From NCBI RefSeq assembly GCF_057098645.1, contig NZ_CM169472.1: a stretch of DNA of 64,000 nucleotides, one strand, 5' to 3'. The notes beneath the pieces were generated by a model that was given only the letters and a program-made list of their open reading frames with translations, was not told where the DNA came from and did no database searches. The position numbers were made by a program, and so were the translations under genes. Shown piece by piece: positions 12,537 through 52,267 of the stretch (positions are counted from its first letter, which is position 1; every line of letters begins with the position of its first letter).

Positions 12537-12684
12537 CAAATTCTCCAGCAATGACAGTTAATGCGCCGATACACTCACAAATCATGCCAGTTTTTAATTC
12601 ACTGTTATTTAAGGAAATTAATTTCTGTAATGCAGGAAAAAAGATGTCATCGACACTAGTGACGATGACATGTGATGACAATGT

Positions 12685-13695
12685 TTATCGCGAAAGAGCA
12701 ATGAGTGAGTCGCGGCGGATCAGTTTTCCGCTGAAGGTTTTCGGCGGTGTGTAAGCGCCCCCATCGAGCATAAAAATCAGCCGTCCAATAATTTCCTGAA
12801 TCATCTCTGTTACCGGAATTTTTACGCTGGAGAGCGCCGGAACGGTGTAGGGGGCAATTGCGATATCATCGAATCCGATAACTGACACCTGCTCTGGCAC
12901 CGCTACGCCGCGCTCGTGTAACGCTTTCATCGCACCTATCGCCATATCGTCGTTACTGGCAACTAACGCGCTAAATTTAGCCCCACGTTCGAGCAACGTT
13001 TCTACCCCTTCGGCCCCGCTGGCGGGCGTCCATTTACCGTTAGCGATAAGTTTTTCATTGAGCGCAATACCATGCTGCACCAGCGCGTCTTTATACCCGG
13101 CAAGACGTTCAATGCTGGTGGGGGAATCCATCGAGCCGGTAAGGAAAGCAATCTCCTGATGCCCGGCGTTTATCAACTCTGCCACGGCGTTAAAGCTGGT
13201 CTGTTTATGATCGCACCAGACGCTATGGCTGCTATTTTTGCGCAGGCGGCGATTAAGCACCATTATCGGCTGACTGTGCGCGTCAATAATGTCATCGATC
13301 TCATCCACGCTTAAAAAACGCGGGTAAATCATAATGGCGTCGCAGCGCAAATCCAGCAGATACTGAATCGCCTGGCGCTCTTCTTCGGCGCTGTGTTTAC
13401 CATCTGCCAATAGCAACTGCCGCCCTTTCTCTTCCGCCATTCGCGCGGCATGAAAGAGTAATTCACTAAAATAAATGCCGTGGTAAAGCGTGTTGGTCAC
13501 TACCAGCCCCAGCGTCTGAGTACTCTTCGCCGACAGATTGCGCGCCAGCAAGTTTGGGCGGTAACCGCTCTCTTCTACCGCCTGAAACACGCGATCTTTA
13601 GTCTCCTGGCTGACGTAGCCATTACCTGAAAGCACGCGGGAAACGGTCGCTTTTGAAACCCCGGCGCGCTTCGCCACTTCCAGCATCGTCGTCAT
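12685..13695 (-). CDS. ascG: LacI-family repressor of the asc operon
   Basis: Start placed at MTTMLEVAKRAGVSKATVSRVL (336 aa; track 376 aa). N-terminal LacI HTH and periplasmic-binding-protein-like fold. Confidence 0.9.
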   Translation of the reverse strand: MTTMLEVAKRAGVSKATVSRVLSGNGYVSQETKDRVFQAVEESGYRPNLLARNLSAKSTQTLGLVVTNTLYHGIYFSELLFHAARMAEEKGRQLLLADGKHSAEEERQAIQYLLDLRCDAIMIYPRFLSVDEIDDIIDAHSQPIMVLNRRLRKNSSHSVWCDHKQTSFNAVAELINAGHQEIAFLTGSMDSPTSIERLAGYKDALVQHGIALNEKLIANGKWTPASGAEGVETLLERGAKFSALVASNDDMAIGAMKALHERGVAVPEQVSVIGFDDIAIAPYTVPALSSVKIPVTEMIQEIIGRLIFMLDGGAYTPPKTFSGKLIRRDSLIALSR

Positions 13696-13782
13696 CATTT
13701 TCATCCCTTTACACGCAATCAACGCAGTGTACTGCACCGTTTGCCGATTGTCCTTGCGCAATCGGTGGGAAAAAATATTCAG

Positions 13783-13797
13783 GTGACCGGTTTCACA
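13783..13797. promoter_or_regulatory. operator-like palindrome (GTGACCGGTTTCACA) in ascG-ascF divergent region
   Basis: Imperfect inverted repeat centred on CCGG, typical LacI-family operator shape. Confidence 0.5.
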
Positions 13798-13855
13798 AAT
13801 ATAAAAAATGAACAATTAACTCTCTTGCTTATTTGGTGACAACTATTCATGATTT

Positions 13856-13872
13856 TGTGAAACCGGTTTCTT
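13856..13872. promoter_or_regulatory. second operator-like palindrome (TGTGAAACCGGTTTCTT)
   Basis: Same AAACCGGTTT core as the first site, 73 bp away, upstream of ascF. Confidence 0.5.
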
Positions 13873-13955
13873 AATTCCGTTTCAGCATCGGCATTTTTCC
13901 GTCACGTCGACTGATAACAACTACATCTACCCTACTGATAACAGGATAAAATCCG

Positions 13956-16846
<2,891 letters not shown>

Positions 16847-16959: not shown

Positions 16960-17379
16960 TCAAAGAAACCATTCCGGCTTAACGCCAAATCGGGCTGAAA
17001 GTGCCTTAATGTGGGATATTGTCAGGGATCGTTGTCCAGACAAAATCTGACTGACCAGGGATTTAGAGCCGATTTCGTTCTTCAAATCCGCATAGGTCAG
17101 ATTATGTTGATCAATCAACGTGCGAAGTAACGCCACGCCAACCGGCATTGCCGCAACGGCTTTGTCGAACTCTGCAAACTTTTCGTTGTTGTTTTCATAC
17201 TCTGCAATGCGGCTCGCCAGAAAGTCGATAAGTGGATTGGTGTCATCTTCTTCAATCAAATATTCGACCAGTTCCAGTGCTTCACGATAATCATCTTCTG
17301 AGTCACTGCCTCCCAGAAAGGGGACTGCATTGACCAGTTCTCTTGTTGCTTTAACAGCGCGTGCAGCATTAGCAGTCAT
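16960..17379 (-). CDS. HigA-like antitoxin (HTH, XRE family)
   Basis: 139-aa ORF; C-terminal HTH (SKSLVSQILSGQRSLTISHIKALSARFGV); 4-nt overlap with upstream toxin ORF; toxin-first order typical of higBA. Confidence 0.75.
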   Translation of the reverse strand: MTANAARAVKATRELVNAVPFLGGSDSEDDYREALELVEYLIEEDDTNPLIDFLASRIAEYENNNEKFAEFDKAVAAMPVGVALLRTLIDQHNLTYADLKNEIGSKSLVSQILSGQRSLTISHIKALSARFGVKPEWFL

Positions 17380-17687
17380 TCTTTGTTCTCTCTGTAGTAA
17401 CGTGTCAGTTTGTCATACTCTGCGTGATTCGTTATGTGCTTCACAAAGAACCGCTTATTAACAAAGTTTATGTAGGCAATAACCCTAAGATTGTTCCCGC
17501 CGACATCCAGAACGTACCATTTGTTGCGATATTTAAAATTGTCGAGGTTGGGAAACGCCGTTCGCATTTCTTCTGGCGTAGAAAAATCCGTTTCCTTAAT
17601 AACCCGATACAATGCCTGAAGAGCCAGAGCGTCGTTAGGATATTTACGCGCAGACTCTTCAAATGGCGCTTTAGAAATGATGTGCAT
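17376..17687 (-). CDS. HigB-like toxin (RelE/ParE superfamily mRNA interferase)
   Basis: 103-aa basic ORF with DNFKY and VGGNNLRV motifs shared with HigB-type toxins; coupled to antitoxin. Confidence 0.75.
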   Translation of the reverse strand: MHIISKAPFEESARKYPNDALALQALYRVIKETDFSTPEEMRTAFPNLDNFKYRNKWYVLDVGGNNLRVIAYINFVNKRFFVKHITNHAEYDKLTRYYRENKE

Positions 17688-17848
17688 TTTTAAGTTTTAA
17701 CTTCCTTATAGTAAGTAAACAGCCACATCTGCGAGTTCTATCCTCATGTGTTCGGAAACTATAGCTCATCAAATCCAGGTTCACAATATGTAAACACTTG
17801 CGCGTGATATAATTACCCCCAAAATCCTCATAACCACTCTGCAAAAAG

Positions 17849-18622
17849 TCAGTTCTGATTCACCCCATCAAGCACATCCCCCTTTATCAAGCAACGTTGC
17901 GTCAGCGACAGATCTTCCGTTTGTGTGTCGCGCCCGGCGATGGGTTTGAGGACGAGTTTACGGTTGGGGGTATAAGTAAAACGCGTGAGCGCGGGATAGC
18001 TTAACTTGCCAAACCAGCCGTGAACACGCTGCCATTTGGCGTCTTTTACCTGATACAGACTGGTTATCCAGTAACCAGAATTAAACTGCATATCCAGCAA
18101 TTGCGTGTGACCATTGCCTTGTAAATCCAGCAAATCATCTACGCCAGTTTTGCTTGCAGTGTAGAATCCCCAGGGTTCAAAGACACAGGGACGGCCTTCG
18201 TGCGTGAACGTCATGAGGATTAAATGTGCATAGGGCGCCAGACCATTACCGGCACTTGGCAACCAGATAACCAGATCCTGAATGCCGTTACGATCCAGAT
18301 CGGCGCGATAGAGCTGCCCTTTGCCCGCCATATTTGCCAGCAACCCCACTGGCACCGTCCAGGATTTACCCGCGAGGTCTTTAGCGGTTAATTGCCAGTA
18401 ATCCTCTTCATTTGGCATCTTCTCAAGCGTCACGCCAGCAACGCCGATTTTTCTAAAATGCCAAGTTTGCTCGGTATAATAAGGCATGGTCAGGAGAGGT
18501 TTCAGCGCCCGCTTTTGCGCATATTCGCTGCCACTCATTGGCAGATATTCGGTAAAGCTGGTGGCCAGTGCAGACTGCACTAAGCTCAATAAAAAAGCGC
18601 ACATCCCTGTTCTGATGTTCAA
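17849..18622 (-). CDS. exported protein of unknown function, possible FG-GAP/VCBS-like calcium-binding loops
   Basis: 257-aa ORF with N-terminal signal peptide (MNIRTGMCAFLLSLVQSALA); motifs ADLDRNGIQDLV and LDLQGNGHTQLLD; starts 24 nt downstream of hycI stop on the same strand. Confidence 0.7.
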   Translation of the reverse strand: MNIRTGMCAFLLSLVQSALATSFTEYLPMSGSEYAQKRALKPLLTMPYYTEQTWHFRKIGVAGVTLEKMPNEEDYWQLTAKDLAGKSWTVPVGLLANMAGKGQLYRADLDRNGIQDLVIWLPSAGNGLAPYAHLILMTFTHEGRPCVFEPWGFYTASKTGVDDLLDLQGNGHTQLLDMQFNSGYWITSLYQVKDAKWQRVHGWFGKLSYPALTRFTYTPNRKLVLKPIAGRDTQTEDLSLTQRCLIKGDVLDGVNQN

Positions 18623-30408: not shown

Positions 30409-32487
30409 ATGTCATATACACCGATGAGTGATCTCGGACAGCAAGGGTTGTTCGACATCACTCGGACACTATTGCAGCAGCCCGATCTGGCCTCGCTGTG
30501 TGAGGCTCTTTCGCAACTGGTAAAGCGTTCTGCGCTCGCCGACAACGCGGCTATTGTGTTGTGGCAAGCGCAGACTCAACGTGCGTCTTATTACGCATCG
30601 CGTGAAAAAGACACCCCCATTAAATATGAAGACGAAACTGTTCTGGCACACGGTCCGGTACGCAGCATTTTGTCGCGCCCTGATACGCTGCATTGCAGTT
30701 ACGAAGAATTTTGTGAAACCTGGCCGCAGCTGGCCGCAGGTGGGCTATACCCAAAATTTGGTCACTATTGCCTGATGCCACTGGCGGCGGAAGGGCATAT
30801 TTTTGGTGGCTGTGAATTTATTCGTTATGACGATCGCCCCTGGAGCGAAAAAGAGTTCAATCGTCTGCAAACATTTACGCAGATCGTTTCTGTCGTCACC
30901 GAACAAATCCAGAGTCGCGTCGTTAACAATGTCGACTATGAGTTGTTATGCCGGGAACGCGATAACTTCCGCATCCTGGTCGCCATCACCAACGCGGTGC
31001 TTTCCCGCCTGGATATGGACGAACTGGTCAGCGAAGTCGCCAAAGAAATCCATTACTATTTCGATATTGACGATATCAGTATCGTCTTACGCAGCCACCG
31101 TAAAAACAAACTCAACATCTACTCCACTCACTATCTTGATAAACAGCATCCCGCCCACGAACAGAGCGAAGTCGATGAAGCCGGAACCCTCACCGAACGC
31201 GTGTTCAAAAGTAAAGAGATGCTGCTGATTAATCTCCACGAGCGGGATGATTTAGCCCCCTATGAACGCATGTTGTTCGATACCTGGGGCAACCAGATTC
31301 AAACCTTGTGCCTGTTACCGCTGATGTCTGGCGACACCATGCTGGGCGTGCTGAAACTGGCGCAATGTGAAGAGAAAGTGTTTACCACTACCAATCTGAA
31401 TTTACTGCGCCAGATTGCCGAACGTGTGGCAATCGCTGTCGATAACGCCCTCGCCTATCAGGAAATCCATCGTCTGAAAGAACGGCTGGTTGATGAAAAC
31501 CTCGCCCTGACCGAGCAGCTCAACAATGTTGATAGTGAATTTGGCGAGATTATTGGCCGCAGCGAAGCCATGTACAGCGTGCTTAAACAAGTTGAAATGG
31601 TAGCGCAAAGTGACAGTACCGTGCTGATCCTCGGTGAAACTGGCACGGGTAAAGAGCTGATTGCCCGTGCTATCCATAATCTCAGTGGGCGTAATAATCG
31701 CCGCATGGTCAAAATGAACTGCGCGGCGATGCCTGCCGGATTGCTGGAGAGCGATCTGTTTGGTCATGAGCGTGGAGCTTTTACCGGTGCCAGCGCCCAG
31801 CGTATCGGTCGTTTTGAACTGGCGGATAAAAGCTCCCTGTTCCTCGACGAAGTGGGCGATATGCCACTGGAGTTACAGCCGAAGTTGCTGCGTGTATTGC
31901 AGGAACAGGAGTTTGAACGCCTCGGCAGCAACAAAATCATTCAGACGGACGTGCGTCTAATCGCCGCGACTAACCGCGATCTGAAAAAAATGGTCGCCGA
32001 CCGTGAGTTCCGTAGCGATCTCTATTACCGCCTGAACGTATTCCCGATTCACCTTCCGCCACTACGCGAGCGTCCGGAAGATATTCCGCTGCTGGCGAAA
32101 GCCTTTACCTTCAAAATTGCCCGTCGTCTGGGGCGCAATATCGACAGCATTCCTGCCGAGACGTTGCGCACCTTGAGCAATATGGAGTGGCCGGGTAACG
32201 TACGCGAACTGGAAAACGTCATTGAGCGCGCGGTATTGCTAACACGCGGCAACGTGCTGCAGTTGTCATTGCCAGATATTGCTTTACCGGAGCCTGAAAC
32301 GCCGCCTGCCGCAACGGTTGTCGCTCAGGAGGGCGAAGATGAATATCAGTTGATTGTTCGCGTGCTGAAAGAAACTAACGGTGTGGTTGCCGGGCCTAAA
32401 GGCGCTGCGCAACGTCTGGGGCTGAAACGCACGACTCTGCTGTCACGGATGAAGCGACTGGGAATTGATAAATCGGCATTGATTTAA
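30409..32487 (+). CDS. fhlA: formate hydrogenlyase transcriptional activator (sigma54-dependent)
   Basis: 692 aa from MSYTPMSDLGQQ; tandem GAF region, AAA+ [15 protein letters not shown]-terminal HTH. Confidence 0.93.
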   Translation: MSYTPMSDLGQQGLFDITRTLLQQPDLASLCEALSQLVKRSALADNAAIVLWQAQTQRASYYASREKDTPIKYEDETVLAHGPVRSILSRPDTLHCSYEEFCETWPQLAAGGLYPKFGHYCLMPLAAEGHIFGGCEFIRYDDRPWSEKEFNRLQTFTQIVSVVTEQIQSRVVNNVDYELLCRERDNFRILVAITNAVLSRLDMDELVSEVAKEIHYYFDIDDISIVLRSHRKNKLNIYSTHYLDKQHPAHEQSEVDEAGTLTERVFKSKEMLLINLHERDDLAPYERMLFDTWGNQIQTLCLLPLMSGDTMLGVLKLAQCEEKVFTTTNLNLLRQIAERVAIAVDNALAYQEIHRLKERLVDENLALTEQLNNVDSEFGEIIGRSEAMYSVLKQVEMVAQSDSTVLILGETGTGKELIARAIHNLSGRNNRRMVKMNCAAMPAGLLESDLFGHERGAFTGASAQRIGRFELADKSSLFLDEVGDMPLELQPKLLRVLQEQEFERLGSNKIIQTDVRLIAATNRDLKKMVADREFRSDLYYRLNVFPIHLPPLRERPEDIPLLAKAFTFKIARRLGRNIDSIPAETLRTLSNMEWPGNVRELENVIERAVLLTRGNVLQLSLPDIALPEPETPPAATVVAQEGEDEYQLIVRVLKETNGVVAGPKGAAQRLGLKRTTLLSRMKRLGIDKSALI

Positions 32488-36764: not shown

Positions 36765-36774
36765 CTTGTTCTCC

Positions 36775-38202
36775 TTATTTACGTACGGCCAGCATAGCGG
36801 TCAGTTTTTCAGCCCAGGCTTTGGTTTCCGGCAAATCCACCACCGGCTGGCTGTAGTGACCACGGTTGTCCGGGGCGACAGGCGTGGTGGCGTCGATAAT
36901 CAGCTTGTCGGTGATCCCCGCCGGGCTTGAGCCAGGGTCGAGTTCCAGCACGGACATATTCGGCAACTGCACCAAATCCCCTGCCGGATTTACTTTCGAG
37001 GAGAGCGCCCACATCACCTGCGGCAGGTTGAACGGGTCAACGTCTTCATCGACCATAATCACCATCTTTACGTAGCCCAGACCGTGCGGCGTGGTCATCG
37101 CACGCAGGCCCACCGCGCGGGCAAAGCCGCCGTAGCGTTTTTTGGTGGAGATAATCGCCAGCAGGCCGTGGGTGTACATGGCGTTTACCGCCTGCACTTC
37201 CGGGAACTCGGCTTTCAGTTGTTGATACAGCGGTACGCAGGTGGCTGGCCCCATCAGGTAGTCGATTTCGGTCCACGGCATGCCGAGGTACAGCGATTCG
37301 AAAATCGGCCTGGTGCGGTAAGAGACTTTATCGATGCGCACCACGGTCATGTTACGCCCGCCGGAGTAGTGTCCGGTAAACTCACCGAACGGCCCTTCGA
37401 TTTCGCGTTTACGGCTTTCGATGACCCCTTCGAGGATCACTTCTGAACCCCACGGCACATCAAAACCGGTCAGCGGGGCGGTGGCGATCGGGTACGGGCT
37501 TTCACGCAGCGCGCCTGCCATTTCATACTCAGACTGATCGTATTTCAGCGGCGTGGCCCCCATCAGCGTGATGATCGGATCGTTACCGAGCGTGATCGCA
37601 ATCGGCAGATCTTCACCGCGCTCTTCTGCTTTATGCAGATGCAGGGCGATATCGTGCATCGGTACCGGTTGCAGGCCAAGCTTACGCTTGCCCTTCACTT
37701 CCATGCGGTAGATGCCGACGTTCTGCTTGCCGAAGTTATCTGGGTCGAGCGGATCGCGGGAAACCACGCAGGCTTTGTCGAGATAGAAACCGCCATCGCC
37801 ATCATTTAAACGAAACAGCGGCAGGATATCGAACAGATTAATCTCGTCACCATCGACGGTGTTCTGCGCCCAGGCAGGATTGGCGCGGCGCTCCGGGACA
37901 ATCGGGAAGTTATCCCAGCGGCGGATAAACTCATCAATCTGTTTTTTAACCGGCGTGTTTGGCGGCAGGCCGAGGGAAATCGCGTGGTTCTGCCAGGAAC
38001 CGATGGTATTCATCGCCACGCGGGCATCGGTAAAGCCGCGAATATTATCAAACCACAGCGCGGGCGCGCCGTCGCCGATACGCCCGGTGGCGTTAGCTGC
38101 TGCTGCCAGATCCGGCTCAGCGTTCATTTCTTCGCTGATTTTCAGTAACTGGCCGTGGTCATCAAGCGCCTGTAAAAAGCTGCGTAAATCATCAAATGCC
38201 AT
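36775..38202 (-). CDS. UbiD-family (prFMN-dependent) decarboxylase, EcdC/BsdC-like
   Basis: 475-aa ORF with UbiD-family architecture; 1-nt overlap with the upstream UbiX-like gene. Confidence 0.88.
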   Translation of the reverse strand: MAFDDLRSFLQALDDHGQLLKISEEMNAEPDLAAAANATGRIGDGAPALWFDNIRGFTDARVAMNTIGSWQNHAISLGLPPNTPVKKQIDEFIRRWDNFPIVPERRANPAWAQNTVDGDEINLFDILPLFRLNDGDGGFYLDKACVVSRDPLDPDNFGKQNVGIYRMEVKGKRKLGLQPVPMHDIALHLHKAEERGEDLPIAITLGNDPIITLMGATPLKYDQSEYEMAGALRESPYPIATAPLTGFDVPWGSEVILEGVIESRKREIEGPFGEFTGHYSGGRNMTVVRIDKVSYRTRPIFESLYLGMPWTEIDYLMGPATCVPLYQQLKAEFPEVQAVNAMYTHGLLAIISTKKRYGGFARAVGLRAMTTPHGLGYVKMVIMVDEDVDPFNLPQVMWALSSKVNPAGDLVQLPNMSVLELDPGSSPAGITDKLIIDATTPVAPDNRGHYSQPVVDLPETKAWAEKLTAMLAVRK

Positions 38203-40523: not shown

Positions 40524-41663
40524 TTATCGCTGCGGCAAATAACGCAGCGGGTTTACGGATTTCCCCTTGTAACGAATTTCAAAATGCAAGCGTGTTGAAC
40601 TGGTTCCGGTGCTACCCATGGTTGCTATTTTTTGCCCCGCCTTCACTTCTTGTTGTTCCCGGACCAGCATTGTGTCGTTATGGGCGTAGGCACTCAGGTA
40701 ATCATCATTATGTTTGATGATAATCAGATTACCGTAGCCGCGCAGCGCGTTACCGGCATAAACAACGCGGCCATCTGCGGTCGCGATAATTGCCTGTCCT
40801 TTGCTGCCTGCAATATCAATCCCCTTGTTGCCCCCCTCAGAAGCGCCAAAGGTTTCGATCACTTTGCCCTCAGTCGGCCAGCGCCAGGTGGAGATAGGCG
40901 TACTGGTTGATGTACTGCTGACAGTCGGCTCGGTTGTGCTTGCTGTTGGTACCGTTACAGGCGCTGTGACCGTGGTCGCAGTTGGCTTGTTGTTCGGCAA
41001 CATTTTGTTAGCACTCTGTTCACCCGAAGACTCAGAATACGTAATTGTCGGTTGCGACGCAACAGCAACGGTGGAATTTTGTGCAGGCTTGATCACAACT
41101 CCTTGCTCTGCTGCGTCGGCCTGGGTAATGGCATTTCCGCCAGTGATTGGCGTACCGGAAGCATTACCCACCTGCAAGGTCTGACCAACGTTCAGCGCGT
41201 ATGGTGCCTGAATATTGTTGCGCTGAGCAAGGTCACGGAAATCGTTGCCAGTAATCCAGGCGATATAGAAAAGCGTGTCGCCTTTTTTCACGGTATAGGT
41301 ACTGCCGCTATAACTGCCTTTCGGAATGTTCCCATACTGACGGTTATAGACGATGCGTCCGTTTTCCATCTGTACCGGCTGCTGAGCTACTGGCTGCACT
41401 GGCTGGATTTGCGGTTGTTGAGTGGCCTGAATTTGTGGCTGCTGTACCGGCTGAATTTGCGGTTGCTGGGCTGTAGACGTCGTCCCCATTTTCGGCGGCG
41501 GCGTAATCAACATACCAGAATTGGTATTTGCAGGCGCATTGCCATTAACGGAGCTGACCGGTGCCGGTGGATTTGAAGTGTCAGAACAGCCTGCCAGCCA
41601 TAGCGAAACCAGTGACAAAGCCGCAATGCGGCGAACGGTGAATTTTGGGCTTCCCGCGCTCAT
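40524..41663 (-). CDS. nlpD: murein hydrolase activator lipoprotein NlpD (LysM + M23-like)
   Basis: 379-aa ORF; lipobox LAGC, Gln/Pro-rich QQPQIQ repeats, LysM ([14 protein letters not shown]), C-terminal LytM domain. Confidence 0.93.
41024..41052 (-). promoter_or_regulatory. candidate sigma70 promoter inside nlpD for rpoS
   Basis: Minus strand TTGCGT-17 nt-TATTCT, ~555 nt upstream of rpoS ATG; consistent with the known rpoS promoter inside nlpD giving a long 5' UTR. Exact hexamers are my reading. Confidence 0.4.
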
Positions 41664-50548: not shown

Positions 50549-50943
50549 GGGTGTTCTACCGCAGGGGCGGGGAATTCTAAGTGATATCCATCATCGCATC
50601 CAGTGCGCCCGGTTTATCCCCGCTGGCGCGGGGAACACTACCCAAAGCCATACGTTTTTGAGGGTTAAAACGGTTTATCCCCGCTGGCGCGGGGAACTCG
50701 AGACCTGCCATGAGGTGGATTTATCAGTCGGCGGTTTATCCCCGCTGACGCGGGGAACTCGATTTTTTCCGCTTCTGACAAATGGTTTTTATCGGTTTAT
50801 CCCCGCTGGCGCGGGGAACTCCCCGAACCCGGCAACATGCTCGCCGACCTGCGCGGTTTATCCCCGCTGGCGCGGGGAACTCTTGATGAAGCGGCGCGTG
50901 TTATAGCTGATGGCCGGTTTATCCCCGCTGGCGCGGGGAACTC
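50549..50943 (-). CRISPR. type I-E CRISPR array: 6 full 29-bp repeats, 6 x 32-bp spacers, plus a degenerate leader-distal repeat
   Basis: Plus-strand repeat CGGTTTATCCCCGCTGGCGCGGGGAACTC at 50610, 50671, 50732, 50793, 50854, 50915 (61-bp period); minus strand reads GAGTTCCCCGCGCCAGCGGGGATAAACCG. Spacers 50578-50609, 50639-50670, 50700-50731, 50761-50792, 50822-50853, 50883-50914. Degenerate repeat 50549-50577 (19/29). The + ORF 50658-50906 is a repeat artefact. Confidence 0.95.
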
Positions 50944-51048
50944 TCTAAAAGTATACATTTGTTCTTAAAGCATTTTTTCCCATAAAAACAACCCACCAAC
51001 CTTGATGTAACATTTCCTTATTATTAAAGATCAGCTAATTCTTTGTTT
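50944..51048 (-). promoter_or_regulatory. CRISPR leader (AT-rich, array promoter)
   Basis: ~105-bp AT-rich segment between cas2 stop and the first repeat; array transcribed on the minus strand away from cas2. Confidence 0.7.
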
Positions 51049-52252
<1,204 letters not shown>

Positions 52253-52267
52253 TTTATTACACCTCAA

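Follow-up and report, generated by a model that had tools for sequence, protein, structure and literature searches.

The ascG-ascFB control region of Escherichia coli: an AscG operator at the predicted ascF start site and a CRP box with an embedded AscG half-site

The divergent genes ascG and ascF are separated by an intergenic region of 260 bp that contains two operator-like sequences, and the question raised by this locus is what each of them does: do AscG dimers on the two sites interact and bend the intervening promoter DNA into a loop, or do the two sites serve different regulators? An earlier note on the window, i.e., the whole stretch of 64,000 nucleotides analysed here, had read the pair as palindromic operators with the spacing expected for cooperative repression by looping. 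It had also placed them in the ascG-ascFB control region, and this locus is confirmed by the RefSeq annotation of an identical genome and by Pfam. The feature is genuine and its biology is not new, since it was characterized in K-12 in 2009 (Ishida et al.). The region is very probably the one already described as controlling the cryptic beta-glucoside operon ascFB, in which AscG represses a class I CRP-dependent promoter.

The window comes from E. coli, and the 2.9 kb surrounding the locus (12600-15500) share 100% identity with the E. coli chromosome NZ_CP148339.1 and about 99.9% identity with O145:H28 strains. The Pfam domains of AscG are a LacI HTH and Peripla_BP_1/3 of the periplasmic-binding-protein fold, and the protein is near-identical to PDB 3dbi/3brq, which carry the name 'ascG'. 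The regulated operon consists of ascF and ascB (13956-16846, plus strand). Coordinates of these genes and of the regulatory features discussed below are compiled in Table 1.

Table 1. Genes and regulatory features of the ascG-ascFB locus (positions in the window)
Feature	Coordinates	Strand	Description	Basis
ascG	12685-13695	minus	336 aa, LacI/GalR-family repressor, intact here	RefSeq annotation of the 100% identical genome
GCAGTGTACTGCAC, near-palindrome GCAGT-GT-ACTGC	13724-13737		28-30 nt upstream of the ascG start codon	
Site 1, CRP box GGTGA-CCGGTT-TCACA	13782-13797		centre at 13789.5, roughly -71.5 relative to the predicted ascF start	
O1, AscG site 1	13782-13795		inside the CRP box; perfect right half-site, degenerate left half	
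Inferred ascF -35, TTGCTT	13825-13830	plus	17 bp to the -10	conserved cTTG
Inferred ascF -10, CATGAT	13848-13853	plus		conserved ATGAT
Site 2 / O2, AscG operator TGAAACCGGTTTCT	13858-13871		centre 13864.5	published PascF sequence and conservation
ascF	13956-15413	plus	PTS EIIBC	RefSeq annotation; Pfam PTS_EIIB/EIIC
ascB	15422-16846	plus	6-phospho-beta-glucosidase	RefSeq annotation; Pfam Glyco_hydro_1 (GH1)

Several observations concern the wider genome context. Between ascB and hycI (16960-18605) lie genes for a HigB-family toxin, an HTH antitoxin, and a hypothetical protein of 251 aa; since ascB adjoins hycI directly in K-12, this looks like a small strain-specific insertion. In the identical RefSeq genome, fhlA (labelled 'flhA') is annotated as frameshifted and the gene for hydroxyarylic acid decarboxylase subunit C with an internal stop (30409-32477 and 36765-38192); both are possibly pseudogenes or sequencing errors. 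A type I-E CRISPR-Cas locus is truncated (about 50599-54233): the array (about 50599-50871) and cas2e, cas1e, and cas6e are present, and casD is a 3' fragment (about 52782-52982) that abuts an IS3-family transposase gene (about 53020-54233). The IS3 element is followed by genes of the LysR family, ykgM/ykgO, and the ecp operon, all of them distant from this locus in K-12. This arrangement suggests that an IS-mediated rearrangement removed cas3 and most of the Cascade genes.

The two strings that drew attention to the region lie exactly where they had been placed, GTGACCGGTTTCACA at 13783-13797 and TGTGAAACCGGTTTCTT at 13856-13872, and their description needs amendment in three respects. The 10-mer AAACCGGTTT, described as a shared core, belongs to site 2 alone and has no further copy in the window; the sequence in site 1 is GACCGGTTT. 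The two sites do share a perfect 14-nt inverted repeat, formed by ACCGGTTTCACAAA (13786-13799) and TTTGTGAAACCGGT (13854-13867). None of 2,000 dinucleotide-preserving shuffles of the 260-bp intergenic region equalled this repeat, the longest one in shuffled sequence being 13 nt. The separation of 73 bp given for the pair counts from the start of one string to the start of the other, and the strings are in different register; measured between the site centres, which fall between CC and GG at 13788.5 and 13864.5, it amounts to 76 bp. Of the two supposed palindromes, site 2 deserves the name, with 12/14 self-complementary positions, and site 1, with 8/14, does not.

The same ranking emerges from the comparison with the AscG consensus TGAAACCGGTTTCA, which site 2 matches at 13 and site 1 at 11 of the 14 positions. 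Site 2 is the only match with one mismatch or fewer in the 64 kb, where 0.01 would be expected. At three mismatches, the level of site 1, the window contains four matches versus 3.1 expected, so that the consensus match alone does not tell site 1 from chance. An extra TGAAACC half-site in the HTH-coding region of ascG (13654-13660), 134 bp from the site 1 centre, is probably a coincidence of coding sequence. A text search with the consensus string returned only papers on Pseudomonas PtxS, which has the same TGAAACCGGTTTCA motif, and no text on AscG.

Conservation of the locus was assessed in a survey of one genome per species with AscG, which yielded 80 loci from Escherichia, Citrobacter, Enterobacter, Klebsiella, Raoultella, Kluyvera, Leclercia, Aeromonas, Sodalis, and other genera. 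In every one of them, ascF is divergent from ascG. The 80 regions analysed comprise 79 of these loci plus the window; locus L018, for which the ascF start was not recovered, was left out. Among individual strains, K-12 W3110, O157:H7, and UTI89 have both sites and their spacing as in the window, and experiments in K-12 therefore apply to this strain. Compared with W3110, the window differs by one additional A in the run of A's upstream of site 1 and by a few SNPs within the promoter spacer. A separate case is E. coli 04A19CPO007 (L084 2728-3425), with an intact ascG and an IS1 in the ascF leader at a position equivalent to about 13909 of the window, between the AscG operator and the ascF start codon; this insertion may be a natural promoter bypass (activation) or an inactivation.

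Site 2 is an AscG operator by several lines of evidence. It is letter-for-letter identical to TGAAACCGGTTTCT, the AscG binding sequence of PascF (PMC8667592 Table S3). With this PascF 14-mer at +1 of a synthetic promoter, AscG repressed strongly; with the 14-mer at -61 of a CRP-independent synthetic promoter, AscG was almost inert (PMC8667592). O2 occurs in all 80 orthologous intergenic regions with three mismatches or fewer, and in 78 of them with no more than two, following the pattern GTG[GA]AACCGGTT[TC]C; across E. coli genomes it varies at the outermost position only. Both sites lie in a promoter region beside the gene of their cognate regulator; agreement with the consensus at a level rarer than chance is a property of site 2. 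Conservation at orthologous loci likewise holds for site 2 and, outside the Escherichia lineage, Kluyvera, and one MAG, fails for site 1. The earlier designation of both as operators thus stands for site 2, which is identical to a published AscG sequence, and stands in part for site 1, which is primarily something else, a CRP box. About 16 nt downstream of O2, an AscG half-site-like CGTTTCA (GTTTCA at 13880-13885) is conserved in genera whose ascF leader is long and is missing from the short-leader Enterobacter group.

A consensus promoter/terminator scan of 13600-14050 returned nothing at the scan threshold, and the ascF promoter was instead derived from conserved blocks in a stack of the 80 regions anchored on site 2. 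Two such blocks, cTTG and ATGAT, lie between sites 1 and 2, the latter directly upstream of site 2. The putative -35 and -10 hexamers that they mark agree with the consensus at only 7/12 positions. Both sites flank these conserved, predicted elements, in line with the earlier view that they bracket the likely ascF promoter. The predicted ascF start is the A at 13860/13861, which places O2 at about -3 to +11 of the putative promoter and the centre of the CRP box at -70.5/-71.5. Class I CRP sites are centred near -61.5, -71.5, -82.5, or -92.5. The distance between the CRP box and O2 is 74-75 bp in 75 of the 80 regions; of the other five, four have 65 bp and one has 73 bp. A distance of 65 bp is one helical turn less than 75 bp, as the class I positions -61.5 and -71.5 predict.

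Site 1 agrees with TGTGA-N6-TCACA at 9 of the 10 specified positions. The half-site bases G4, A5, and T12-C13-A14-C15 (GA and TCAC) are invariant in 80/80 regions, and the N6 spacer varies, with all four bases found at positions 8-11. Site 1 thus has the conserved half-sites and the unconstrained spacer of a CRP site. CRP ChIP-seq in ETEC H10407 lists a site between ascG and ascF, GGTGACCGGTTTCACA, that is identical to 13782-13797 (PMC4287617). Because it appears in this ChIP-seq list and only its CRP half-sites are conserved in the 80 regions, site 1 is primarily a CRP box. A second CRP-like match in the window, TGTGACCGTGGTCGCA (40965-40980), lies in nlpD upstream of rpoS and is also a ChIP-seq site, '(nlpD)', in the ETEC H10407 table (PMC4287617).

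O1 is embedded in this box as the left arm of the 14-nt inverted repeat shared with site 2. Its right half is a perfect GGTTTCA, and its left half, GGTGACC, is a degenerate version of TGAAACC. An exact GGTTTCA inside the CRP box was found in 10 of the 80 regions, namely the window and three others of the Escherichia lineage, five of Kluyvera, and one MAG. In 68 regions, all of which have O2, the box is at least two mismatches away from an AscG half-site. The contribution of O1 could therefore be small, given that the half-site is missing from most genera. Within E. coli, a 35-mer around site 1 finds a match in 4557 of 5426 complete genomes, and 4547 of 4558 matching records reach at least 99% identity. 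In prpR-prpB, the one other AscG target that has been published, several TGAAAC half-sites occur, and a scan of it for the full AscG palindrome found none with four or fewer mismatches. Half-sites in a target that lacks the palindrome make AscG binding to a half-site-type O1 plausible.

These elements can be combined into a mechanism. Bound at 13782-13797, about -71.5, cAMP-CRP would activate a weak sigma-70 promoter, and an AscG dimer on the near-perfect palindrome O2 would cover the start site and exclude RNA polymerase. In Escherichia, AscG at the second, weaker O1 inside the CRP box would additionally compete with CRP (anti-activation). The 76-bp spacing would then be a by-product of the geometry between CRP and the start site rather than a looping distance. 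Ishida, Kori, and Ishihama (2009, J Bacteriol 191:6136) reportedly derived the AscG consensus TGAAACC-GGTTTCA and located two sites upstream of ascFB. AscG is said in that work to block both cAMP-CRP, at a CRP box that overlaps AscG site 1, and RNA polymerase binding, and from this literature we infer CRP-AscG competition at O1. That upstream-bound AscG was almost inert on a CRP-independent promoter fits an O1 that acts via CRP and not on polymerase directly. PMC3505978, citing Ishida et al. 2009, refers to two AscG binding sites at ascFB. The asc genes are expressed only if IS186 disrupts ascG (PMC3505978), and AscG interactions at asc are curated in RegulonDB.

The looping interpretation holds that contact between AscG dimers at O1 and O2 draws the intervening 76 bp of promoter DNA into a loop, the spacing having been selected for that purpose. 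It can point to two AscG-type sites on either side of the core promoter, to the cooperativity from which a weak O1 would gain, to a distance of 76 bp that is intermediate between two at which LacI formed stable loops in the Becker/Maher test strains (75.5 and 77.5 bp), and to dimer-dimer contacts that may be common in the family (PMC3505978). We nevertheless regard it as quite unlikely. AscG residues 3-333 align with residues 5-331 of the 360 of LacI, the protein ends at 336, and its Pfam domains end at residue 330 with no C-terminal helix to follow. Since AscG ends where LacI residue 331 aligns, the tetramerisation helix is absent, and with it the LacI-type tail as an oligomerisation module that could bridge two dimers. 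Moreover, LLhA/Q55A, which joins the LacI DBD to the AscG regulatory domain, showed less than 2-fold change over spacings of 70.5-77.5 bp, unlike GalR and TreR chimeras, which displayed clear spacing dependence (PMC3505978). Strong repression is obtained from O2 alone at +1. The two-operator layout is limited to Escherichia, Kluyvera, and one MAG and thus is not conserved with the regulator over the 80 regions. The spacing of about 75 bp is nonetheless kept in the 68 of 80 regions whose upstream element is at least two mismatches from a half-site, so that class I CRP geometry explains it better than looping does, and the claim of a looping distance is not upheld. The resemblance to lac O1/O3 and gal OE/OI, where two LacI/GalR-family operators likewise flank a CRP-dependent promoter and lac O3 adjoins the CRP site, has its limits. 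LacI has the tetramerisation helix that AscG lacks, and the upstream asc 'operator' is a half-site, conserved in no more than two genera and embedded in a CRP box.

The opposite simplification, that site 1 is a CRP site only, that its likeness to an AscG half-site is coincidental, and that AscG acts through O2 alone, is also unlikely in our view. The 11/14 consensus match at chance level, the many genera that keep O2 and a CRP box without the half-site, and the near inertness of AscG at -61 of the CRP-independent synthetic promoter (PMC8667592) would all suit it. Coincidence is harder to reconcile with a 14-nt identity to site 2 that extends 3 nt beyond the core consensus and was equalled by 0/2000 shuffles, or with the recurrence of CGGTTTCAC in the CRP box of a separate genus, Kluyvera, despite the free N6 spacer. 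The surrounding 35-mer, nearly always exact in the 4557 E. coli genomes, and the two AscG sites at ascFB reported in PMC3505978 also speak against it. A purely structural role for the inverted repeat, as an RNA stem or a DNA cruciform enclosing the promoter, is most improbable. A single-strand fold of 13778-13876 does give a long-range stem of -25.1 kcal/mol (z = -4.1 versus shuffles), but the inferred start lies within the right arm, which means that no ascF transcript would contain both arms. Most genera lack the left arm, and the conservation of the right arm is that of a protein-type palindrome; protein ligands are documented for both arms (PMC8667592, PMC4287617), and Rfam returned no family, the sole match being at chance level (E = 0.78). 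The ascF leader was also considered as an RNA element and rejected, as 13861-13975 folds no better than shuffles (z = 0.15). An 80% inverted repeat (13886-13900 / 13944-13958) could pair the leader with the ascF SD/ATG, and this leader fold gives it no support.

The ascG side of the intergenic region has a conserved element of its own. GCAGTGTACTGCAC is exact in 53 of the 80 orthologous regions and present with at most one mismatch in 72, at a constant distance from ascG. Found from Escherichia to Aeromonas, it is the best-conserved feature on this side. A candidate ascG -10, TACACT (minus strand, 13731-13726), overlaps it, and a candidate -35, AGGACA (13754-13749), whose GACA part is conserved, lies 17 bp from that -10. 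It bears no resemblance to the AscG and CRP motifs, and we know of no protein assigned to it. The window contains no significant second copy of the conserved GCAGTGTACTGC element, which is thus not a dispersed motif within it.

Set against K-12, where AscG and CRP control the same ascFB locus with sites, spacing, and intervening sequence that are identical or nearly so, the region shows no difference of substance; what the cross-genus footprint adds is the lineage restriction of O1. A second point of comparison is provided by CytR and CRP at deoP2 and related promoters, where a LacI/GalR-family repressor likewise acts against CRP activation of a catabolic promoter for sugars or nucleosides. 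CytR sits between two CRP dimers and contacts both cooperatively. At asc, unlike in the CytR system, the AscG site overlaps a single CRP box, which implies competition and not cooperative binding. The CytR-CRP interaction is mentioned in PMC3505978.

The importance of the region beyond correct annotation is little. It serves as a worked example in which a repressor has an operator over the start site and also competes with the activator at a CRP box. Across Enterobacterales and Aeromonas, the operator at the start site and the CRP box are of ancient origin and keep a fixed spacing. Confinement of the second AscG site to a few lineages argues against looping as a design principle, and this lineage-restricted site on an ancient CRP box is the mildly new, comparative element of our findings. 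Tentatively, the AscG half-site in the CRP box could be a lineage-specific overlay. The ancestral design, retained from Citrobacter to Aeromonas, would have been one start-site AscG operator plus a class I CRP box, and Escherichia and Kluyvera would have written CGGTTTCAC into the free CRP spacer, either separately or ancestrally. If so, the overlay would add anti-activation, or weak cooperativity between O1 and O2, and could contribute to the tight 'cryptic' silencing of asc in E. coli.
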